Source: Escherichia coli
GTDB taxonomy: Bacteria; Pseudomonadota; Gammaproteobacteria; Enterobacterales; Enterobacteriaceae
Reading direction: 5' to 3' (one strand)
DNA length: 64,000 nucleotides
Assembly: GCF_045037415.1 (NCBI RefSeq)
Contig: NZ_CP173438.1
Below the pieces are notes generated by a model that saw nothing but the letters and a program-made list of their open reading frames with translations, did not search any database and was not told the origin of the DNA. Below, in pieces: positions 1-63,692 of the stretch (within the stretch, counting starts at the first letter, position 1; each line of letters begins with the position of its first letter). The position numbers and the translations under genes were made by a program.

Positions 1-261
1 GATCACCTGGCGGATATCACAGAGAAAACCAATCCGCTCAGCCCAATAACCGCCCAGACCAACACCACAAATGAGCGGGCGCTCGTCGACGTTCAGTTGC
101 AACATTTTGTCCACTTCTTTGAGCAAATGCTGCATATCATGTTTTGGATGCCGCGTACTGTAGCTTATTAGCCGTACATCCGGGTCAATAAACTGCAATT
201 GTAAGACTTTCTCGTGGTTACCCGGACTGTTAGAGTCAAAACCGTGCAAATAGATAATCAT
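1..261 (-). CDS. ycfP: UPF0227 family putative esterase YcfP, N-terminal part (gene runs off the left edge)
   Basis: Reverse-complement translation from ATG at 259-261 reads [47 protein letters not shown]... with no stop before position 1; sits downstream of nagZ as in E. coli. Confidence 0.8.
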
Positions 262-283
262 CGCTTCCTCACATAAGCCAGGG

Positions 284-2124
<1,841 letters not shown>

Positions 2125-2144
<20 letters not shown>

Positions 2145-2766
2145 CTTTACCTGACCAGATAATTTCGCCCGTCTGCACCAGCATCAGCTGCATTTGTAGG
2201 GTCGGAGCGTTAACGTTGCCAGAGGCGCTGGAGTACAGCACGTAATGAGCGCCAACATTGCGGGCAATGCCTATGGCTTTACTACGGGTGCCTAAACTGT
2301 CCTGCGGCGACAAACCTAATTGTTGCTTAGCCATCGACAGCTGCTGGGCGGAAACCAGGGTAAATTTACCGTTATTAGCCAGCGCATTTCGCAGCGTTTC
2401 GGTCGCTTCTGCGGCATTCAACGAACCGTTAGTACGGTTGTTAACGCTATCAACCAGCAGGACGCTACCCGCAGTCACGCCATCAGCCCCAAGCATCTTA
2501 CTGACCATCGGCTGCATTGCGCCATTCCAGTCATAATGGCGAATATGCGGCGCAGGCGGTGCAGTTTGATCTTCGTGCTCAATTGGGCCTGGCTGCTGCG
2601 GTATCGTCGGCACCGATGGCACTGTGGGGACAGGCTGTTGTGGCTCGGTTGGTTGTTCCGGCGCTGGTTTCACTTCTTCTACCGGTGCAGGTTCACGTTG
2701 CCCCACACACCCGGCAAGAAACATCGCCAGCGCGGTAATCAAGGCGTAGCGACTCATTTTTGTCAT
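2125..2766 (-). CDS. lpoB: outer-membrane lipoprotein activator of PBP1B
   Basis: [24 protein letters not shown]... with lipobox LAGC and Pro/Gln-rich linker; start taken at second Met to give 213 aa (start uncertain by one codon). Confidence 0.9.
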
Positions 2767-2779
2767 CAAGATTCACCCC

Positions 2780-3157
2780 TTACAAATATAGATAAAGTCT
2801 GACTTTGTGCGCCCCCAGAAAATTGGCGCTGCCGTACAGCGTGACCGCCGAATGTGCGGGAATGGTAACGCTGCGTGGCCTTTCCAGAGGATGCATCTCC
2901 AGCCCTCTGGCGTCATACCAGTAAAAACGATAATGAACGGTAACGGGTTCTTGCCTTTCGTTATAAAGCGTTGAGGATGCTGAAGGTTGAATATCAGATG
3001 TCGAAAGGACGGGCTTTTCTGCACTGATGCCCGCAGCCAATAAAGATGACTCCATCACCAGCGATTGCTCATCATTCACCGGAATTTCCGGATGTGAACG
3101 ACAGCCCACCAGCACTAACAACGCCAGAGACACCAGCCCAAAGCATCCTTTTCTCAT
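2780..3157 (-). CDS. ycfL: lipoprotein YcfL
   Basis: 125 aa ORF MRKGCFGLVSLALLVLVGC... with lipobox; synteny between lpoB and hinT. Confidence 0.85.
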   Translation of the reverse strand: MRKGCFGLVSLALLVLVGCRSHPEIPVNDEQSLVMESSLLAAGISAEKPVLSTSDIQPSASSTLYNERQEPVTVHYRFYWYDARGLEMHPLERPRSVTIPAHSAVTLYGSANFLGAHKVRLYLYL

Positions 3158-3159
3158 CG

Positions 3160-3519
3160 TTACAGACCTTTATGCGCCAGCATTGGTCCCAGCGGACGGC
3201 CACCCAACAAGTGCATATGGATGTGGTAAACCTCTTGTCCGCCATGGCGGTTGGTGTTCATGATCAGACGATAGCCATCTTCGGCAATACCTTCTTGCTC
3301 AGCAATTTTTGCCGCTACGGTGATCATGCGTCCCAGCGCCTGCTCATGCTCAGCTGACACGTCGTTCACAGTCGGAATGAGGATATTCGGAATGATCAGA
3401 ATATGCGTTGGCGCTTGCGGCGAAATATCGCGAAACGCCGTTACCAGATCATCCTGGTAGACGATATCGGAGGGGATCTCACGACGAATAATTTTGCTGA
3501 ATATAGTTTCTTCTGCCAC
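3160..3519 (-). CDS. hinT: HIT-family purine nucleoside phosphoramidase
   Basis: ORF contains HIT motif HIHMHLLGG; ORF track begins at a TTG at 3535-3537; I place the start at GTG 3517-3519 ([16 protein letters not shown], 119 aa). Confidence 0.85.
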
Positions 3520-3730
3520 GACATTTTCCTTTTTCAAATAGCCATGCGTTGCGCCATGCTACGCCGCGCCACACTGCGAGTATAGAGTATGGTCGAGTTA
3601 AACCTGCTCTTTCAACCTTAACTCACGATTTCTTAAGCAAAAAACCGTTTTGCTGCCGTATATATCGCCATTATTCCCATTTCTGCCTGCGAATGCGCTG
3701 AAAAGACATTTTCTGTTTGGTTTACACACC

Positions 3731-3770
3731 AAATATGAATGCGTATATTTCTCATTTGCATTTACATACA
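3731..3770 (+). promoter_or_regulatory. candidate Fur operator / promoter region of fhuE
   Basis: AT-rich segment ...atgaatgcgtatatttctcatttgcatttac... about 90-120 bp upstream of the fhuE ATG; partial match to the GATAATGATAATCATTATC iron box; fhuE is a known Fur-repressed gene. Confidence 0.4.
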
Positions 3771-3852
3771 AAATTATTCGCACACTAAATATAACCGCTC
3801 ATCACCCTGCTCCGGCATGAGCCTGACGCCAACATAAACCAAGAGATTTCAA

Positions 3853-6042
3853 ATGCTTTCGACACAATTTAACAGGGATAATCAACATCAAGCCATCATC
3901 AAACCGTCACTCCTTGCCGGTTGCATAGCACTGGCACTATTACCTTCCGCCGCTTTTGCTGCACCAGCCACTGAAGAAACGGTGATTGTTGAGGGTTCAG
4001 CCACAGCCCCAGATGATGGCGAAAATGATTACAACGTAACGTCTACCTCTGCGGGTACAAAAATGCAGATGACTCAACGTGATATTCCTCAGTCGGTCAC
4101 TATTGTTAGCCAGCAGCGGATGGAAGATCAGCAGTTACAAACGCTGGGCGAAGTGATGGAAAACACGCTGGGGATCAGCAAAAGTCAGGCGGATTCCGAT
4201 CGTGCTCTTTATTATTCCCGCGGATTCCAGATCGATAACTATATGGTTGATGGTATCCCCACCTATTTTGAATCGCGCTGGAATCTGGGCGACGCACTTT
4301 CTGATATGGCACTGTTTGAACGCGTAGAAGTAGTGCGTGGCGCGACAGGCCTCATGACCGGGACGGGTAATCCATCTGCGGCAATTAATATGGTTCGAAA
4401 ACACGCGACCAGTCGTGAATTTAAAGGCGATGTCTCGGCGGAATACGGTAGCTGGAACAAAGAACGGTATGTGGCGGATTTACAAAGCCCACTCACCGAA
4501 GACGGTAAAATCCGCGCACGAATTGTCGGCGGCTACCAGAATAACGACTCATGGCTGGACCGCTACAACAGTGAAAAGACCTTCTTCTCCGGCATTGTCG
4601 ATGCTGATTTAGGCGATCTTACGATGCTTTCAGCCGGTTACGAATATCAGCGTATTGATGTTAATAGCCCAACCTGGGGCGGTTTACCGCGCTGGAATAC
4701 TGATGGCAGCAGCAACAGTTACGATCGCGCACGCAGTACCGCACCTGACTGGGCGTACAACGATAAAGAGATCAACAAGGTCTTTATGACCCTGAAGCAG
4801 CGGTTTGCTGATACCTGGCAAGCGACGCTGAATGCCACCCACTCTGAAGTCGAATTTGACAGCAAAATGATGTATGTCGATGCCTATGTAAACAAAGCGG
4901 ATGGTATGCTGGTTGGGCCATACAGTAATTATGGCCCTGGTTTTGATTATGTCGGAGGCACCGGTTGGAACAGCGGCAAACGTAAAGTTGATGCGCTGGA
5001 TCTGTTCGCTGACGGTAGTTATGAATTGTTTGGTCGTCAGCACAATTTAATGTTTGGTGGCAGTTACAGCAAACAAAACAATCGTTACTTCAGTTCATGG
5101 GCCAACATTTTCCCGGATGAAATTGGCAGTTTCTACAACTTTAATGGCAATTTCCCACAAACCGACAGGTCACCACAGAGTCTGGCGCAGGACGATACCA
5201 CACATATGAAATCGTTATATGCTGCCACTCGTGTCACCCTTGCCGATCCGCTGCATCTGATCCTCGGCGCACGTTATACCAAGTGGCGGGTTGATACGCT
5301 GACTTACAGCATGGAGAAAAACCACACCACGCCTTATGCTGGACTGGTGTTTGACATCAATGATAACTGGTCGACCTACGCCAGCTATACCTCTATTTTT
5401 CAGCCGCAAAATGATCGTGACAGTTCAGGCAAATATCTGGCACCAATCACCGGTAACAACTACGAGCTGGGTCTGAAATCGGACTGGATGAATAGCCGTC
5501 TGACCACCACGTTAGCCATCTTCCGTATTGAGCAGGATAATGTCGCTCAGTCCACCGGTACACCTATCCCCGGCAGCAACGGCGAAACCGCCTATAAAGC
5601 GGTGGATGGGACAGTCAGTAAAGGTGTGGAATTTGAACTCAACGGCGCAATTACCGACAACTGGCAGCTGACGTTTGGCGCAACGCGCTATATTGCAGAG
5701 GATAACGAAGGAAACGCCGTTAATCCTAATCTGCCACGCACCACGGTTAAAATGTTCACCAGCTATCGGTTGCCTGTCATGCCAGAGTTGACGGTCGGCG
5801 GTGGTGTTAACTGGCAAAATCGCGTGTATACCGACACCGTGACACCGTATGGCACCTTCCGCGCCGAGCAAGGTAGCTACGCGCTGGTGGATCTCTTCAC
5901 CCGCTACCAGGTGACGAAAAACTTCTCGTTACAGGGGAACGTCAATAACCTGTTCGACAAAACCTACGATACCAACGTGGAAGGTTCTATTGTCTACGGC
6001 GCACCGCGTAATTTAAGCATTACCGGCACGTATCAATTCTGA
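3853..6042 (+). CDS. fhuE: TonB-dependent outer-membrane receptor for ferric coprogen / rhodotorulic acid
   Basis: 729 aa ORF with signal peptide, TonB box-like N-terminus and C-terminal aromatic residue (…TGTYQF) typical of TonB-dependent receptors. Confidence 0.95.
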   Translation: MLSTQFNRDNQHQAIIKPSLLAGCIALALLPSAAFAAPATEETVIVEGSATAPDDGENDYNVTSTSAGTKMQMTQRDIPQSVTIVSQQRMEDQQLQTLGEVMENTLGISKSQADSDRALYYSRGFQIDNYMVDGIPTYFESRWNLGDALSDMALFERVEVVRGATGLMTGTGNPSAAINMVRKHATSREFKGDVSAEYGSWNKERYVADLQSPLTEDGKIRARIVGGYQNNDSWLDRYNSEKTFFSGIVDADLGDLTMLSAGYEYQRIDVNSPTWGGLPRWNTDGSSNSYDRARSTAPDWAYNDKEINKVFMTLKQRFADTWQATLNATHSEVEFDSKMMYVDAYVNKADGMLVGPYSNYGPGFDYVGGTGWNSGKRKVDALDLFADGSYELFGRQHNLMFGGSYSKQNNRYFSSWANIFPDEIGSFYNFNGNFPQTDRSPQSLAQDDTTHMKSLYAATRVTLADPLHLILGARYTKWRVDTLTYSMEKNHTTPYAGLVFDINDNWSTYASYTSIFQPQNDRDSSGKYLAPITGNNYELGLKSDWMNSRLTTTLAIFRIEQDNVAQSTGTPIPGSNGETAYKAVDGTVSKGVEFELNGAITDNWQLTFGATRYIAEDNEGNAVNPNLPRTTVKMFTSYRLPVMPELTVGGGVNWQNRVYTDTVTPYGTFRAEQGSYALVDLFTRYQVTKNFSLQGNVNNLFDKTYDTNVEGSIVYGAPRNLSITGTYQF

Positions 6043-8637: not shown

Positions 8638-9642
8638 TTAAAGATGAGGAACCGGTAGCACAACGCCCGGTTGCAGGTAATGCTCAATACGCAGTAAAAG
8701 ATCGGTGATGAGAAGCTCGCGGTTGATACCTGTGACAGACATTAACTGTTCACGAATGTGGCAAACATCCCCCAGTATAGCCTGCAGGCGCGAGGGAGAA
8801 AGATGGTTTGCCAGTTCGACGACCAGCCCCGGCACATCAACATTGGTCACGTGCGCAGCGCCATAATGGCGTTTTAGCGCATCCATCAGCAACGTTGCCA
8901 GCCAGTGTAAACGCGCCGGAGCTTGTTCATTATTAAGGGCCGCTAGCAGCGAATACCAGTCGCCCGATTGCACGCCATATGCCAGCGCCTGACACAATGT
9001 TTCACGAGCCTGCCAGTTATCTCCCTGAAACAACGCCAGTGCCGCCCCAGGCGAACCGGCGCTTAAGCGCAATGCGGCAAGTAGTGCATCCTGTGACATT
9101 GTCACTTCGCGTGAAAGCCAGGTCACGGCGTACTGTTCCGGCGGCGGCGCAAGGTAATGTAACCGACAACGACTACGTAATGTTGCCAGTAAACGTTCTG
9201 GCTCGCGGGTAGCAAGGAAAAACCACGTCTCTGCTGGTGGCTCTTCAAGCGTTTTCAGCAATGCGTTAGCCGCGGCGTCGGTTAGTAAGGCAGCATCGGT
9301 TACCCAGACAACTTTCGCACCACCTAAGCGTGCGTGCTCATTCAGCTTTTCGGTGACCTCACGTACCGCATCAATGCCCAGCGCATTTTTCCCTTTTTCG
9401 GGAGCCAGGGTGTAGTAATCGGGATGTGTGCCAGCCTGCATCAACTGACATCCACGACAGTGACCGCAACTTTTGTGGCCCTGCGGTTGTTGGCAGAGTA
9501 AATAACGGCTCAGGGCGTAGATTAAAGCATCATCGCCCATGCCCGGTAACGCCTGAATGAGTAGCGCATGGTGACCTCTTCCGGCCTGATAGCTGGCTAC
9601 CAGTTTTTCGAAATCAGGTCGTAACCATGGATACCATCTCAT
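8638..9642 (-). CDS. holB: DNA polymerase III delta-prime subunit
   Basis: [40 protein letters not shown]...; clamp-loader AAA+ fold with Cys-rich zinc module (CGHCRGC); start ATG overlaps tmk stop (ATGA). Confidence 0.95.
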
Positions 9643-10280
9643 GCGTCCAACTCCTTCACCCAATTGGTCACGGTAGTGCGGATTGCATCCATCACGGCCT
9701 CCAGCGGCTGGGTGGCATCAATGGTATGAATGCTTTTATCTTGTGCTGCCAGTTCCAGATAGCGGGCGCGGGTGCGATTAAAGAAATCGAATGACTCTTG
9801 CTCAATACGATCCAGCTCACCACGGGCGCGAGCACGTTTTAAGCCGACCTCTGGGGTGACATCAAGATAAAGCGTTAAGTCAGGGCGAAAATCCCCGAGA
9901 ACAGCATCACGCAGTGTTGCCAGCATATGTTGGTCAATACCACGTCCTCCACCCTGATAGGCTTGAGTGGAGAGATCGTGGCGATCGCCAATCACCCAGG
10001 TGCCGTTAGCCAGCGCAGGTTTGATGACCGTTTCTACCAGTTGAACGCGCGCGGCATAAAACATCAAAACTTCGGCTTTATCGGTAATGACTTCATCGCC
10101 TACCGATTTGATATCCAGCACCAGGCTTCTTAACTTTTCGGCAAGTTGCGTACCGCCAGGTTCCCGAGTGAAAACCATGTCGCGGATACCCAGTTGCTCA
10201 AGCGTCTCAACCACCACGTTACGCGCGGTAGTTTTGCCTGCGCCTTCCAGCCCCTCAATGACGATATACTTACTGCGCAT
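9639..10280 (-). CDS. tmk: thymidylate kinase
   Basis: 213 aa [21 protein letters not shown]... with P-loop. Confidence 0.97.
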
Positions 10281-30846: not shown

Positions 30847-31602
30847 TTAACTCATCGACAGCAGTTGGTTGGCACGGCCTGCGTTATCATCGACGCTGCT
30901 GATCACCTTCATCTGCATTTCAAAACGCCGTGCGCTGGCAATCATGTCGCTCATTGCCGCAACGGCATTGACGTTACTGCCTTCCAGAACCCCCGACATC
31001 ACACGCAAGGTTGGATCTGCCTGCAGTACCGGCCCACGCGTAGCCTGGCTTTCTGCGCTTAAACGAAAAATGCCATCGTCACCGCGCTGGACTTCGCTGC
31101 CCGTGGCTTTCACCAGCTTCAGACGCCCCACTGGCGCAACCGTATTTGCCGGATCGCCCGGATTCAGCGCCGAGATTGTGCCATCGGCAGCAATAGTGAT
31201 TTCCGCCCCTTCCGGCACAGCAATTGGCCCCGCCTCGCCTACCACCGGATGTCCCTGAATTGTCAGTTGCCCGGTGGGATCAACCTGAATGCTGCCATTA
31301 CGCGTATACCCTTCACTGCCGTCAGCGGTCTGCACGACCAGCCAACCATCCTGCTGCAACGCAACGTCCAGCGGGCGCGAGGTGTAATCCATCTTGCCGG
31401 GCGTCATGTCTGCACCCGGTGTTGACGCCGTTACCAGCGTGCGCGTGGGCAGTGAAAGCCCTTCCACCGGCACTGCGCGCAAGGCGTTTAACTGCGCGCG
31501 AAAACCGGGCGTAGAGGCATTGGCCAGATTACTGGCGGTTACCGCCTGTTGATTCAGCGTCTGGCTGGCTGCTCCCATCGCGGTATAAATTGCGTGATCC
31601 AT
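30847..31602 (-). CDS. flgF: flagellar proximal rod protein
   Basis: 251 aa ORF MDHAIYTAMGAASQTLNQQAVTASNLANASTPGFRAQ... Confidence 0.96.
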   Translation of the reverse strand: MDHAIYTAMGAASQTLNQQAVTASNLANASTPGFRAQLNALRAVPVEGLSLPTRTLVTASTPGADMTPGKMDYTSRPLDVALQQDGWLVVQTADGSEGYTRNGSIQVDPTGQLTIQGHPVVGEAGPIAVPEGAEITIAADGTISALNPGDPANTVAPVGRLKLVKATGSEVQRGDDGIFRLSAESQATRGPVLQADPTLRVMSGVLEGSNVNAVAAMSDMIASARRFEMQMKVISSVDDNAGRANQLLSMS

Positions 31603-31621: not shown

Positions 31622-32827
31622 TTAGCGTAAGTTAACCAGCGTATTGAGGATCTGGTCCTGGGTTTTGATGGTCTGGGCGTTAGACTGATAGTTACGCTGG
31701 GCAACGATCATATTGACCAGTTCTTTACTGAGATCGACGTTGGACGCTTCCAGCGCACCGTTGGTCAGGGTGCCAAAGTTGCCCGTCCCGGCTGTCCCCA
31801 ACAGCGCCACGCCAGAAGATTGCGTAGCGGACCAGACGTTGTCGCCTTCGGATGCCAGACCTTCGTTGTTGGCAAAGTTCGCCAGTACAATCTGCCCCAG
31901 CAGTTGGGTTTGTTCGTTGGAATAGTTGCCGACAACCGTACCGTCATCATTGATTTGATAACTCACCAGATCGCCCGGTTTGTAGCCGTTCTGGGTGGTT
32001 GCCACAATGTTGTTAGCGCCGGTATTTTGCTGCATGGAGTTGAGGAAGCTCAGGCTAAACGTGGCGGGATCTGCGCCGTTAATTGCGCCGGTGGTAATAT
32101 CCTTTGTTGGATCTGAGGTCAGAACGCCATTGGCATTAAACACCAGCGTCGTTGCAGGGTTAGCTGTGCCTGTTGGATCACTGCTATCCAGGGTGTAAAC
32201 ATCCCAGTTATTATCCCCGGTCTTCACAAAGTAGACGCTCATGTCATGAGCATTACCCTGACTATCGAAAACAGTCACCGAACCTTTTTTGTTATAGCTA
32301 TCCGCATTGCTGGCATCAAATGCGTTAACAGAGGGAAGCGAATCACTGGAATTCAGGTTGATCTGCATCGACGCCGTGGTGGTAGTTTTCGCTGCCATCA
32401 GGGTATTCGGAATCGAAATATTGGTCGGATTCGCCCCTTGCTGAATAGTCGGCGGCGTACCGGTTGCCGGGTAACCCGTCAGCTGTAAACCTTGCATATT
32501 CACCAGGTTACGGTTTTCATCCAGCTTAAATTGTCCGTTACGGCTGTAGAATACCGAACCATTGCTGTCTACCAGACGGAAAAAACCGTTCTGGCTGATA
32601 GCAACGTCCAGACCACGCCCGGTGTTGGTGGTCGTGCCATCGGTAAAGTCCTGAGTGATACCAGCAACTTTTACCCCCAGTCCCACTTTCGAACCGGCAA
32701 ACATATCGGCAAAAGAGGCCGTGCCTGATTTAAAGCCGTAGGTGGCGGAGTTGGCGATATTGTTGCCAATAACATCGAGGTTGGTGGCGGCAGCGTTTAA
32801 TCCGCTAACCGCTTGAGAAAAGGCCAT
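31622..32827 (-). CDS. flgE: flagellar hook protein
   Basis: 401 aa ORF MAFSQAVSGLNAAATNLDVIGNNIANSATYGFKSG... with conserved termini and variable central domain. Confidence 0.96.
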   Translation of the reverse strand: MAFSQAVSGLNAAATNLDVIGNNIANSATYGFKSGTASFADMFAGSKVGLGVKVAGITQDFTDGTTTNTGRGLDVAISQNGFFRLVDSNGSVFYSRNGQFKLDENRNLVNMQGLQLTGYPATGTPPTIQQGANPTNISIPNTLMAAKTTTTASMQINLNSSDSLPSVNAFDASNADSYNKKGSVTVFDSQGNAHDMSVYFVKTGDNNWDVYTLDSSDPTGTANPATTLVFNANGVLTSDPTKDITTGAINGADPATFSLSFLNSMQQNTGANNIVATTQNGYKPGDLVSYQINDDGTVVGNYSNEQTQLLGQIVLANFANNEGLASEGDNVWSATQSSGVALLGTAGTGNFGTLTNGALEASNVDLSKELVNMIVAQRNYQSNAQTIKTQDQILNTLVNLR

Positions 32828-32851: not shown

Positions 32852-33547
32852 TTAAATTATCTGCCGTACTTCGTCGAGGGTAGTGGTGCCGTAAGTGCCA
32901 AGATCCAGCGTATTACCGTTGTTGCCGCGGATCACCCCCTGCACCAGAGCAAACTGCAGCGGTTGGGCAACCAGTTGTGTACCACCGTTACTGGCGCTAA
33001 TCGCTACATTGTAAGAACCGTTCGGCGCAGTGCTGCCGTCAGTCAACGTACCGTCCCAGGTGAAACTGTGGACTCCGGCAGTCAGTTCACCGATATCAAT
33101 GGTACGGACGACCGCGCCGTTTTTATCGGTGATGGTGGCCGTCACTTTGTCTGCTGCCTGTTGCAACTCAACACCAAACGGCGTGGTCGTGGTCACAGCC
33201 CCTTCTTCACTGCCGGTTCCCGCAAGAACTGTGGTACCGGGGATCATCACGCCGTGACCGATAAGGTTACTGGCCTGTAACGACTGACTGTTATCAATCT
33301 GTCCGGAAATAGATCCGAGCGTGGTATTGAGTTTTTCAATCCCACTGACCGTGCTGATTTGTGCCAATTGCGACGTCAGCTCGTTGTTTTCCATTGGATT
33401 GGTCGGGTCCTGGTTTTTCAGCTGCGCCACCAACAAAGTCAGAAAACTGCTTTGTAAATCTGCGGCGTTGCTGCCCGTGAGCGAACTACTGCTGGTGGTA
33501 CTGACGCCGGTATTCGTCGGATCGGTGGTGGTTACCGCAATAGACAT
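32852..33547 (-). CDS. flgD: flagellar hook-capping (scaffold) protein
   Basis: 231 aa ORF MSIAVTTTDPTNTGVSTTSSSSLTGSNAADLQSSFLTLLVAQLKNQDPTNP... Confidence 0.95.
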   Translation of the reverse strand: MSIAVTTTDPTNTGVSTTSSSSLTGSNAADLQSSFLTLLVAQLKNQDPTNPMENNELTSQLAQISTVSGIEKLNTTLGSISGQIDNSQSLQASNLIGHGVMIPGTTVLAGTGSEEGAVTTTTPFGVELQQAADKVTATITDKNGAVVRTIDIGELTAGVHSFTWDGTLTDGSTAPNGSYNVAISASNGGTQLVAQPLQFALVQGVIRGNNGNTLDLGTYGTTTLDEVRQII

Positions 33548-38596: not shown

Positions 38597-39839
<1,243 letters not shown>

Positions 39840-42792: not shown

Positions 42793-43836
42793 ATGACTGC
42801 ACCATCCCAGGTTTTAAAGATCCGCCGCCCAGACGACTGGCACCTTCACCTCCGCGATGGCGACATGTTAAAAACTGTCGTGCCGTATACCAGCGAAATT
42901 TATGGACGGGCTATCGTAATGCCCAATCTGGCTCCGCCCGTGACCACCGTAGAGGCTGCCGTGGCGTATCGCCAGCGTATTCTTGACGCCGTACCTGCCG
43001 GGCACGATTTCACCCCGCTGATGACCTGTTATTTAACAGATTCGCTGGATCCTAATGAGCTGGAGCGCGGATTTAACGAAGGCGTGTTCACCGCTGCAAA
43101 ACTTTATCCGGCAAATGCAACCACTAACTCCAGCCACGGCGTTACGTCAGTTGACGCAATCATGCCGGTACTTGAGCGCATGGAAAAAATCGGTATGCCG
43201 CTACTGGTGCATGGTGAAGTAACACATGCAGATATCGACATTTTTGATCGTGAAGCGCGCTTTATAGAAAGCGTGATGGAACCGCTGCGCCAGCGCCTGA
43301 CCGCGCTGAAAGTCGTTTTTGAGCATATCACCACCAAAGACGCTGCCGACTATGTCCGTGACGGAAATGAACGGCTGGCTGCCACCATCACTCCGCAGCA
43401 TCTGATGTTTAACCGCAACCATATGCTGGTTGGTGGTGTGCGTCCGCACCTGTATTGTCTACCCATCCTCAAACGCAATATCCACCAACAGGCATTGCGT
43501 GAACTGGTCGCCAGCGGTTTTAATCGTGTATTCCTCGGAACGGATTCTGCGCCACATGCACGTCATCGCAAAGAGAGCAGCTGCGGCTGCGCGGGCTGTT
43601 TCAACGCCCCAACCGCGCTGGGCAGTTACGCTACCGTCTTTGAAGAGATGAATGCTTTGCAGCACTTTGAAGCATTCTGTTCTGTAAACGGCCCGCAGTT
43701 CTATGGCTTGCCGGTCAACGACACATTCATCGAACTGGTACGTGAAGAGCAACAGGTTGCTGAAAGCATCGCACTGACTGATGACACGCTGGTGCCATTC
43801 CTCGCCGGAGAAACGGTACGCTGGTCCGTTAAATAA
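42793..43836 (+). CDS. pyrC: dihydroorotase
   Basis: 347 aa [38 protein letters not shown]... with metal-binding HxH motif. Confidence 0.97.
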
Positions 43837-46925: not shown

Positions 46926-47501
46926 ATGAAAAAAAGCCTGCTTGGTTTAACCTTCGCTTCCTTGATGTTCTCTGCCGGTTCAGCGGTTGCCGCCGATTAC
47001 AAAATTGACAAAGAAGGTCAGCACGCCTTTGTTAACTTCCGAATCCAGCATCTTGGCTATAGCTGGTTATATGGCACCTTCAAAGATTTCGACGGTACTT
47101 TTACCTTTGATGAAAAAAATCCAGCTGCCGATAAAGTGAATGTGACAATTAACACCACCAGCGTCGATACTAATCACGCCGAACGCGATAAACATCTTCG
47201 CAGTGCGGATTTCCTCAATACCGCAAAATATCCACAGGCAACATTCACCTCCACCAGCGTGAAGAAAGACGGTGACGAACTGGATATTACCGGCAATCTG
47301 ACGCTGAATGGTGTAACCAAGCCCGTCACACTGGAAGCGAAATTAATTGGTCAGGGTGACGACCCGTGGGGCGGTAAACGTGCAGGCTTTGAGGCCGAAG
47401 GCAAAATTAAGCTCAAAGACTTCAATATCAAGACAGATTTAGGTCCAGCGTCTCAGGAAGTGGATCTGATTATTTCAGTGGAAGGCGTACAGCAGAAGTA
47501 A
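46926..47501 (+). CDS. yceI: periplasmic YceI-family polyisoprenoid-binding protein
   Basis: 191 aa [41 protein letters not shown]... with signal peptide. Confidence 0.93.
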
Positions 47502-59675: not shown

Positions 59676-60078
<403 letters not shown>

Positions 60079-60079
60079 G

Positions 60080-60440
<361 letters not shown>

Positions 60441-60499
60441 ATTCTTCTCCCGAAAAAAAAACAGGGCTTACGCCCTGTTTCTTTCATACAGATGATGTA

Positions 60500-60958
60500 T
60501 TAGTACTGATGAGCGGTCGCGTTGTTACCAAAGCCAACCTGAGTGACGTTAACGCTGGAGTTAGATGCAGTCTGGTCAACAGCAGCACCGTTACCGCCAC
60601 CGAACTGTTTAACAGTCATAGTAGAATCTTTACCATTCCACTGATCAAGAGTAGCGCTGTTGCCGAAACCACGCTGAGTCAGATCGATTGAGCTGTCATC
60701 AGAACCTTGGCCAACATCTGCACCATTACCGCCGCCGTGCTGGGTAATGGTCAGATCAGAGTTGCGGGCGTCAGCTTGCAGAGCAAGAGCAGAGTTACCG
60801 CCACCGTACTGGTAAATATTCAGCTCTGAATTCGGGCCGCTGTTATTACCGCCACCACCGTGGTTGCCGCCACCGCCGCCGTACTGAGGAACAACACCTG
60901 CCAGAGCGCTACCGGAGAATACGATTGCTGCAATTGCTGCTACTTTTAAAAGTTTCAT
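60500..60958 (-). CDS. csgA: major curlin subunit
   Basis: 152 aa ORF with signal peptide and five imperfect repeats of the S-x5-Q-x-G-x-G-N-x-A-x3-Q type. Confidence 0.97.
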   Translation of the reverse strand: MKLLKVAAIAAIVFSGSALAGVVPQYGGGGGNHGGGGNNSGPNSELNIYQYGGGNSALALQADARNSDLTITQHGGGNGADVGQGSDDSSIDLTQRGFGNSATLDQWNGKDSTMTVKQFGGGNGAAVDQTASNSSVNVTQVGFGNNATAHQY

Positions 60959-60998
60959 GTAAAACCCCCATCGGATTGATTTAAAAGTCGAATGGAAA

Positions 60999-61454
60999 TT
61001 AACGTTGTGTCACGCGAATAGCCATTTGCGACTGTCTCTGCACTACAATTGCCGTTTTTTGAGTACCATACTGTGTAATATTTGCTTTATTACCAGAACC
61101 TTTCTGGATAATCATCGCAGTATTACCATAAGCACCTTGCGAAATACTGGCATCGTTGGCACTGCCCGCCTGATCAATATATGCAAGGTTATAATCTCCT
61201 GTCTGGTCAATCTTTGCCCGGTTGCTACTACCTTCTTGCGCAACAACCGCCAAAAGTTTTGAGCCTCCCTGCCGTAACTGAGCACTATTATTAGTCCCAG
61301 CTTGACCAATTATGGCTGCCTGATTAAATGAAGACTTACTCAATTCATTTACCGCAAAGTTATATTCTGAATTAGCTAAATCATAACCTGCTGCGGCTGC
61401 AATCCCAGGCGCACCCAGTATTGTTAACATCATAAATAACAATTTGTTTTTCAT
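60999..61454 (-). CDS. csgB: minor curlin subunit / nucleator
   Basis: ORF with MKNKLLFMMLTILGAPGIAAA... start (ATG 61452-61454, 151 aa) and curlin repeats. Confidence 0.95.
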   Translation of the reverse strand: MKNKLLFMMLTILGAPGIAAAAGYDLANSEYNFAVNELSKSSFNQAAIIGQAGTNNSAQLRQGGSKLLAVVAQEGSSNRAKIDQTGDYNLAYIDQAGSANDASISQGAYGNTAMIIQKGSGNKANITQYGTQKTAIVVQRQSQMAIRVTQR

Positions 61455-62206: not shown

Positions 62207-62857
<651 letters not shown>

Positions 62858-62861
62858 AGCC

Positions 62862-63251
62862 ATGAAACGTTATTTACGCTGGATTGTGGCGGCAGAATTT
62901 CTGTTCGCCGCAGGGAATCTTCATGCCGTTGAGGTAGAAGTCCCGGGATTGTTAACTGACCATACTGTTTCATCTATTGGCCATGATTTTTACCGAGCCT
63001 TTAGTGATAAATGGGAAAGTGACTATACGGGTAACTTAACGATTAATGAAAGGCCCAGTGCACGATGGGGAAGTTGGATCACTATAACGGTCAATCAGGA
63101 CGTTATTTTCCAGACTTTTTTATTTCCGTTGAAAAGAGACTTCGAGAAAACTGTCGTCTTTGCACTGATTCAAACTGAAGAAGCACTAAATCGTCGCCAG
63201 ATAAACCAGGCGTTATTAAGTACGGGCGATTTGGCGCATGATGAATTTTAA
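62862..63251 (+). CDS. csgE: curli secretion specificity factor
   Basis: 129 aa [47 protein letters not shown]... Confidence 0.95.
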
Positions 63252-63275: not shown

Positions 63276-63692
63276 ATGCGTGTCAAACATGCAGTAGTTC
63301 TACTCATGCTTATTTCGCCATTAAGTTGGGCTGGATCCATGACTTTCCAGTTCCGTAATCCAAACTTTGGTGGTAACCCAAATAATGGCGCTTTTTTGTT
63401 AAATAGCGCTCAGGCACAAAACTCTTATAAAGATCCGAGCTATAACGATGACTTTGGTATTGAAACGCCATCAGCGTTAGATAACTTTACTCAGGCCATC
63501 CAGTCACAAATTTTGGGTGGGCTACTGTCGAATATTAATACCGGTAAACCGGGCCGCATGGTGACCAACGATTATATTGTTGATATTGCTAACCGCGATG
63601 GTCAATTGCAGTTGAACGTGACAGATCGTAAAACCGGACAAACCTCGACCATCCAGGTTTCGGGTTTACAAAATAACTCAACCGATTTTTAA
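63276..63692 (+). CDS. csgF: curli assembly component
   Basis: 138 aa [46 protein letters not shown]... Confidence 0.95.

Follow-up and report, generated by a model that had tools for sequence, protein, structure and literature searches.

The csgA Gene of an ST131-like Escherichia coli Chromosome Segment Is a Catalogued Natural Allele That Differs from K-12 within a Sharply Bounded Block

Does the csgA gene carried on a 64-kb stretch of Escherichia coli DNA (referred to as the window) encode the K-12 form of the major curlin subunit, and if it does not, what do the differences signify? CsgA is exported through the Sec pathway and kept soluble in the periplasm; the CsgG channel then recognises the very start of the N-terminal segment, and the protein is secreted. 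On the cell surface, CsgB templates it into a stacked β-solenoid amyloid made of five curlin repeats. An initial annotation had pointed to an extra glycine in the N-terminal segment and to altered residues in the repeats. The gene was compared with K-12 and other alleles from within and outside the species.

The csgA coding sequence occupies 60500..60958 on the minus strand and consists of an ATG start, 152 codons and a TAA stop, as given by the list of open reading frames. Its translation is 152 residues long (MKLLKVAAIAAIVFSGSALAGVVPQYGGGGGNHGGGGNN...QADARN...GKDSTMTV...AHQY). A Sec signal peptide, residues 1-20 (MKLLKVAAIAAIVFSGSALA; 60899..60958, minus strand), is identified from the alignments and is identical in DNA to that of K-12; the cleavage site follows the established domain layout of K-12 CsgA (PMC6957492). 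The N-terminal targeting segment, residues 21-43 (GVVPQYGGGGGNHGGGGNNSGPN; 60830..60898, minus strand), corresponds to the "N22" segment of K-12 plus one glycine and contains a run of five glycine codons, GGC GGC GGT GGC GGC, at 60866..60880 on the minus strand, as aligned with K-12. The remainder of the gene (60503..60829, minus strand) codes for the amyloid core, where five curlin repeats were delimited by reading the translation against the curlin motif (PMC10192328) and by the Pfam Curlin_rpt model. On the minus strand these are R1, residues 44-66 (60761-60829); R2, residues 67-88 (60695-60760); R3, residues 89-111 (60626-60694); R4, residues 112-133 (60560-60625); and R5, residues 134-152 (60503-60559).

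On every feature that can be tested from sequence, the product belongs to the CsgA family. At 238 bits, the match to the NCBIfam CsgA equivalog model NF007470 exceeds the cut-off of 160 and covers residues 1-152, while the CsgB model, at 34.5 bits, stays far below its cut-off of 165. Pfam PF07012 (Curlin_rpt) scores 97.4 bits, with a cut-off of 20.7. The pattern S/N-x-h-x-h-x-Q ... G-x-G-N-x-h-x-h-x-Q is readable in all five repeats, and its conserved core positions are all as in K-12. The Sec signal is followed by the Gly-rich segment that opens with the CsgG-binding GVVPQYG, and residues 1-26 are the same as in K-12. Among known structures, the fibrils 8ENQ and 8ENR, which are of the K-12 type, align to residues 21-152 of the window protein, and PDB 6L7C is the 22-residue N22 peptide of K-12.

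The genetic surroundings are those of K-12. csgB, which encodes the minor curlin and nucleator and is the first gene of csgBAC, lies upstream at 60999..61454 (minus strand) with one synonymous difference from K-12, and csgC, encoding the periplasmic curli chaperone, lies at 60108..60440 (minus strand). The divergent csgDEFG operon is represented on the plus strand by csgD (62207-62857), csgE (62862-63251) and csgF (63276-63692), with csgG crossing the end of the window; the arrangement of csgBAC and csgDEF(G) is collinear with K-12. A terminator-like hairpin, CAGGGC-GUAA-GCCCUG followed by nine U, is found at 60453..60477 on the minus strand, beginning 22 nt past the csgA stop. It folds as RNA at -24 kcal/mol (z = -6.1); a consensus terminator scan did not list it, though RNA folding shows the hairpin clearly. 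Its stem is the same as in K-12, the sole substitution (mismatch at 60470) falls in the loop, and the U-run of nine compares with eight in K-12 because of a 1-bp indel at 60453.

Protein and DNA were aligned with csgA of K-12 MG1655 (NC_000913 1104447-1104902, NP_415560.1, b1042). The K-12 product is 151 residues long, as the initial annotation had it, and the pairwise alignment did not return the exact identity that would have overturned the initial annotation. Instead, 148 of the 151 aligned residues are the same, and the window protein has one additional glycine and three substitutions, T to A at 62, N to D at 111 and E to T at 113. The five-glycine run replaces four glycines in K-12 (GGC GGC GGC GGT), QADARN stands for QTDARN and GKDSTMTV for GKNSEMTV. 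The proposal that the changes fall within the amyloid repeats or beside them is borne out as well: the glycine falls in N22, T62A in R1, N111D at the end of R3 and E113T in R4, while R2 and R5 are identical to K-12. Codon 62 (60773..60775, minus strand) is GCT (Ala) rather than ACT (Thr) through a mismatch at 60775 and specifies the first arc 2 residue of R1. Codon 111 (60626..60628, minus strand) is GAT (Asp) rather than AAT (Asn) through a mismatch at 60628 and specifies the last arc 2 residue of R3. Codon 113 (60620..60622, minus strand) is ACT (Thr) rather than GAA (Glu), with mismatches at 60620-60622, and specifies the second residue of R4. In DNA, 35 substitutions and a 3-bp insertion, which aligns at 60870-60872, were counted over 456 aligned bases, and about 30 of the substitutions are synonymous.

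The whole window forms one collinear alignment to K-12 1,101,403-1,165,403 in reverse orientation, and since its identity is only 98.13%, it is not from K-12, in agreement with the earlier suggestion of a non-K-12 strain or variant allele. Elsewhere in this comparison, pyrC (42793-43836) was flagged for a possible frame or stop defect, but the flag reflects only an earlier stop that makes the product one residue shorter (347 aa) than that of K-12 (348 aa). ymdA (59676-59987) ranks third in the window by dN (0.017) and is annotated as frameshifted in two sampled genomes; its naming varies among records between "type 1 fimbrial protein" and "protein YmdA."

The window csgA is a catalogued, ST131-type natural allele and is already known. 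Its 459-bp DNA matches annotated csgA at 100% in many complete genomes of E. coli in RefSeq, and its product is WP_000771429.1, the RefSeq name for the coding sequence in SK1144, ZLWT and MINF_7C. Among 5,382 matching genomes, identity is at least 99% in 566, 95-99% in 1,147, 90-95% in 3,648 and 80-90% in 21; the allele is thus present at ≥99% identity in about 10% of these complete genomes. In the same search, 44 of 5,426 genomes gave no match, the 21 genomes in the lowest class reached only 80-90% identity, and five matches were on records typed as plasmids. Over the 25 kb from position 39001 to 64000, the window matches a set of genomes at 100.0% identity, among them JJ1887, 81009 and the Ecol_ series. 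JJ1887 is an ST131 H30Rx strain (PMC4866839), and this match to ST131 genomes identifies an ST131-like B2 chromosome as the source of the window. In a sample evenly spaced down the identity ranking of complete genomes, 16 of 59 full-length matches (~27%), O157:H7-type alleles included, had the 459-bp length, which places the extra glycine in roughly one quarter of complete genomes. The A62/D111/T113 type, judged by DNA class, occurs in about one third of complete E. coli genomes.

What would these changes do to the protein? CsgG contacts V2-G7 of the mature N-terminus, with the first six residues enough for binding (PMC6957492), and N22 is disordered and lies outside the amyloid core (PMC10192328). 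The extra glycine is located downstream of the CsgG-binding VVPQYG, within the flexible glycine run, and would be tolerated in this disordered, Gly-rich linker. In each curlin repeat, strand motifs a and b are followed by arc 1 (x-G-x-G) and arc 2, respectively; every second strand residue points outward, and conservation of arc 2 is poor (PMC10192328). By this scheme, T62A and N111D would sit in weakly conserved arc 2 loops, and T113 occupies the outward-facing position 2 of motif a in R4. None of the core-facing S/N, hydrophobic, Q and arc 1 Gly positions is altered relative to K-12. The change from N..E to D..T shifts the acidic side chain two positions along and retains exactly one, so this pair of substitutions would relocate the charge and keep its net value; mature CsgA has a net charge of -6 in all variants compared. 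A single acidic residue, at either 111 or 113, was found in every Escherichia, Citrobacter and Salmonella sequence compared. From these positions we infer that the four protein differences from K-12 are neutral or nearly so.

A modest effect of the substitutions on kinetics is nevertheless possible. Acidic surface residues can tune CsgA nucleation, and in engineered CsgA, surface Asp and neighbouring Arg or Lys modulate it (PMC11414021, PMC9900396). In the window protein, A62 lies three residues ahead of Arg65, and D111 adjoins Lys110. Judged by eye from the sequences, Arg65 and Lys110 look like equivalents of R62 and K107, the basic gatekeepers in the CsgA of C. youngae. Because the polymorphic residues are found beside these two positions, a small kinetic effect is conceivable.

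The silent differences are far more numerous. The synonymous divergence of csgA from K-12 (dS 0.33) is ∼5-fold that of neighbouring genes, against a median of 0.062 over 69 genes of the window and a next-highest value of 0.18 (tmk), and dN/dS is 0.058. Divergence per 500 bp reaches 7.6% and 6.6% in the csgA windows, compared with a mean of about 1.86%; these two rank third and fourth in the 64 kb, with only central flgE higher. Most of the difference between the K-12 and window csgA is synonymous and is confined to a sharply bounded block of 440 bp. The list of differing positions, in 100-bp bins, places this block at 60434..60872, covering the csgA-csgC spacer and the coding sequence of mature CsgA, with 43 listed differing positions in ∼440 bp (about 1.87% windowwide). 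Beyond its edge, from 60873 to 61355 (483 bp), there is no difference from K-12 across the signal-peptide codons and most of csgB.

Other genes of the window are also divergent. The most divergent stretch relative to K-12 is in flgE (31622-32827), peaking at ∼31750-32500 with 11.8% per 500 bp; this gene has the highest dN in the window, 0.033, and a 3-bp deletion at ∼32107, and its central part looks like a variable surface-exposed domain. Raised dS values (0.15-0.18) in tmk (9639-10280), yceI (46926-47501), flgF (30847-31602) and flgD (32852-33547) suggest further recombined segments in the region.

Sampling of 11 further E. coli genomes spread over the identity range resolved csgA into at least three classes, 27-40 substitutions apart. 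The window type comprises the window, SK1144, ZLWT, MINF_7C, CLSC36, W13-16 and M00057, with 0-11 substitutions inside the class. The K-12 type comprises K-12, 05-3629, 07-4299, MRE162 and 2014C-3338, with 2-10 substitutions. The O157:H7 type is represented in this sample by NE92, 27-40 substitutions from members of both other classes. Over all genomes, csgA identities to the window fall into two modes separated by a gap from 97.2% down to 92.4%.

To place these classes, csg loci were retrieved by a scan of species representatives from E. albertii, E. whittamii, Escherichia sp. MOD1-EC7003, sp. E1V33, E69 and SCPM-O-B-8794; the scan returned neither E. fergusonii nor the species representative of E. 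coli, and the comparison is made without them. For csgA, dS is 0.24-0.44 between E. coli classes and 0.2-0.55 between species, and the window allele is nearer to E. albertii (0.21) than to K-12. For csgC, csgD, csgE, csgF, ymdA, ymdB and clsC, dS is 0.01-0.12 among E. coli and 0.3-1.25 to other species. The ratio of within-species to between-species dS is therefore ∼1 for csgA and about 0.1 for flanking genes. When within- and between-species synonymous counts of csgA were set against those of the pooled flanks, Fisher odds ratios of 7-8 were obtained (p = 1e-7 to 1e-12), in what amounts to a rough pairwise version of the HKA test based on single sequence pairs rather than population samples. 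The protein states are likewise spread across species in varying combinations of A/T62, D..T or N..E, and four or five glycines: A62 with D..T in E. albertii, A62 with N..E and five glycines in E. whittamii, and T62 with D..T in MOD1-EC7003.

Two further observations came from this comparison. Between species, dS of csgB is low, 0.11-0.19 for E. albertii, E. whittamii and sp. E1V33 versus 0.4-1.1 for csgC, csgD, csgE and csgF (p = 3e-6 for E. albertii and 1.5e-9 for E. whittamii); this could be due to strong synonymous or RNA-level constraint or to recent spread across species. In addition, two records titled E. coli, CP089930.1 (E69) and NZ_JAATUR010000009.1 (SCPM-O-B-8794), show flanking-gene dS of 0.3-1.25 from E. 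coli and at most flanking genes are nearer to E. whittamii or sp. E1V33, as judged from csgC, csgD, csgE, csgF, ymdA, ymdB and clsC for E69 and from csgC, ymdA, ymdB and clsC for SCPM-O-B-8794. They appear to be other Escherichia species or cryptic clades.

The table of variable csgA sites is visibly mosaic. For 12 E. coli csgA alleles, the Hudson-Kaplan Rmin is at least 8, and near sites are more compatible than far ones, the observed value being reached in none of 2000 permutations of site order. The csgA of MOD1-EC7003 is a clear mosaic: to the left of alignment column 327 it agrees with K-12 at 19 of the 22 discriminating sites, and on the right all 14 carry the window state (p = 2e-7). 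The best-supported account, drawn from 18 Escherichia alleles with ∼110 synonymous sites each, treats the csgA alleles as old lineages among which recombination has occurred again and again, both inside Escherichia species and from one species to another. Shuffling of these old lineages by homologous recombination would then explain the large distance in DNA from K-12, with crossovers probably located in csgC on one side and, on the other, in the highly conserved DNA of csgB and the signal peptide. A single introgression behind the difference between K-12 and the window was considered and rejected, as there are at least three classes and several breakpoints, and no outgroup matches a whole class. 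Taken together with the intact reading frame and conserved core, and with the curli made by UTI89, whose CsgA lacks only the extra glycine, as an indirect indication of function, the evidence argues strongly that the window csgA is an intact and probably functional natural allele whose DNA divergence stems from old, recombining allele lineages.

Three other explanations bear on parts of this account. Short tandem runs of GGC and GGT are prone to length mistakes, and the additional codon could in principle be an error of sequencing or assembly. Such an origin is barely credible and was discarded: many complete genomes sequenced independently of one another contain exactly these 459 bp, the inserted bases make up one full codon and leave the frame intact, and the five-glycine length recurs in further lineages, O157:H7 and E. 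whittamii among them. A higher local mutation rate, owing to repetitive G+C-rich sequence or to transcription in stationary phase, would account for the high dS in another way. It is in keeping with the internal repetition of csgA, with the near equidistance of the three classes and with the several codon arrangements of the glycine run, which suggest slippage or recurrent change. Local hypermutation fits poorly, however, because the divergence of csgA between species is below that of its neighbours, and not above it. Moreover, the differences occur in shared blocks with clear breakpoints, and compatibility is greater among near sites than among far ones, to a degree that none of the 2000 permutations reached; the block spans the non-coding spacer and ends abruptly inside csgA, and the co-transcribed csgB is nearly free of differences. 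It is thus unlikely, and we give it very little credence as the source of the csgA dS.

Selection is harder to set aside. The classes might be functionally distinct and kept by balancing or frequency-dependent selection on A/T62, on D..T versus N..E at 111/113 and on glycine number, the synonymous divergence being linked hitch-hiking; amyloid nucleation kinetics, surface adhesion and recognition by host or phage are candidate traits. The recurrence of the same amino-acid states across species in different combinations, the excess of within-species over between-species synonymous differences and the constant retention of one acidic residue, at 111 or 113, are as expected under such selection, and the modulation of nucleation by surface Asp and nearby Arg or Lys in engineered CsgA (PMC11414021, PMC9900396) offers a route for it. 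Yet dN/dS is just 0.058, only three or four residues vary, and recombination between species can by itself yield the same polymorphism-to-divergence signal. The frequency of CsgA variants differs between haemolytic and non-haemolytic E. coli, but this may merely track phylogroup, and the survey that reports it states that natural CsgA variation has no demonstrated functional effect (PMC8767327). Curli of the K-12 type (MC4100) and of the UTI89 type are also alike in standard assays (PMC6117054). Maintenance of the classes by selection is therefore doubtful in our estimation. The same holds for the stronger proposition that csgA is a trans-species polymorphism, in which A/T62 and the pair at 111/113 (D..T against N..E or D..H), near Arg65 and Lys110, together with the length of the glycine run would define types that differ in amyloid nucleation or interactions and are held by balancing selection and passed between species; this we consider improbable. 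Old lineages shuffled by recombination remain the preferred reading. A literature search on csgA allele classes, recombination and selection in E. coli found no description of this deep mosaic structure, which may be described elsewhere; the nearest work was the survey of variants in haemolytic and non-haemolytic strains (PMC8767327).

The allele itself carries little weight beyond marking the window as ST131-like B2. The mosaic nature of csgA, with alleles common to several Escherichia species, could be of relevance to bacterial population genetics and to curli research, and it makes the gene unsafe as a phylogenetic or typing marker. The allele also shows that K-12 CsgA, the protein behind almost every structural and kinetic study, is but one natural form among several. 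If the trans-species polymorphism were true, ST131 and K-12 would make curli with measurably different behaviour. Were the variants to differ in nucleation kinetics, this would bear on work on gut curli and the seeding of host amyloids, in which the precise sequence of CsgA is considered important (PMC9253359, PMC12042535).

Compared with known relatives, the window gene has the same position, operon and signal peptide as csgA of K-12 MG1655, the source of the 8ENQ/8ENR sequence, but the K-12 protein has one glycine fewer and T62, N111 and E113, and the genes are separated by 35 nucleotide substitutions, with a dS of 0.33. UTI89, a uropathogenic strain that produces csgA-dependent curli (PMC6117054), has a CsgA (WP_000771435.1) of the same allele class, with A62, D111 and T113 and 8-10 nucleotide differences in the gene; its protein is 151 residues long, with four glycines, and is otherwise the same as that of the window. 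The UTI89-type allele was also found in CLSC36, W13-16 and M00057. In O157:H7, CsgA (WP_000771428.1) shares the length of 152 residues, the five-glycine run, A62 and D111 with the window protein but differs in having H113 and T in place of S at 135, and its gene belongs to the third DNA class, 36 substitutions away. Five glycines are found outside O157:H7 too, in E. whittamii and others. The CsgA of E. albertii NBRC 107761 resembles that of the window in A62 and D..T, with a csgA dS of 0.21 from the window allele, while the flanking genes of E. albertii are at dS 0.4-0.6 from E. coli; it departs from the window protein in its four glycines and in SI for VV past the cleavage site.
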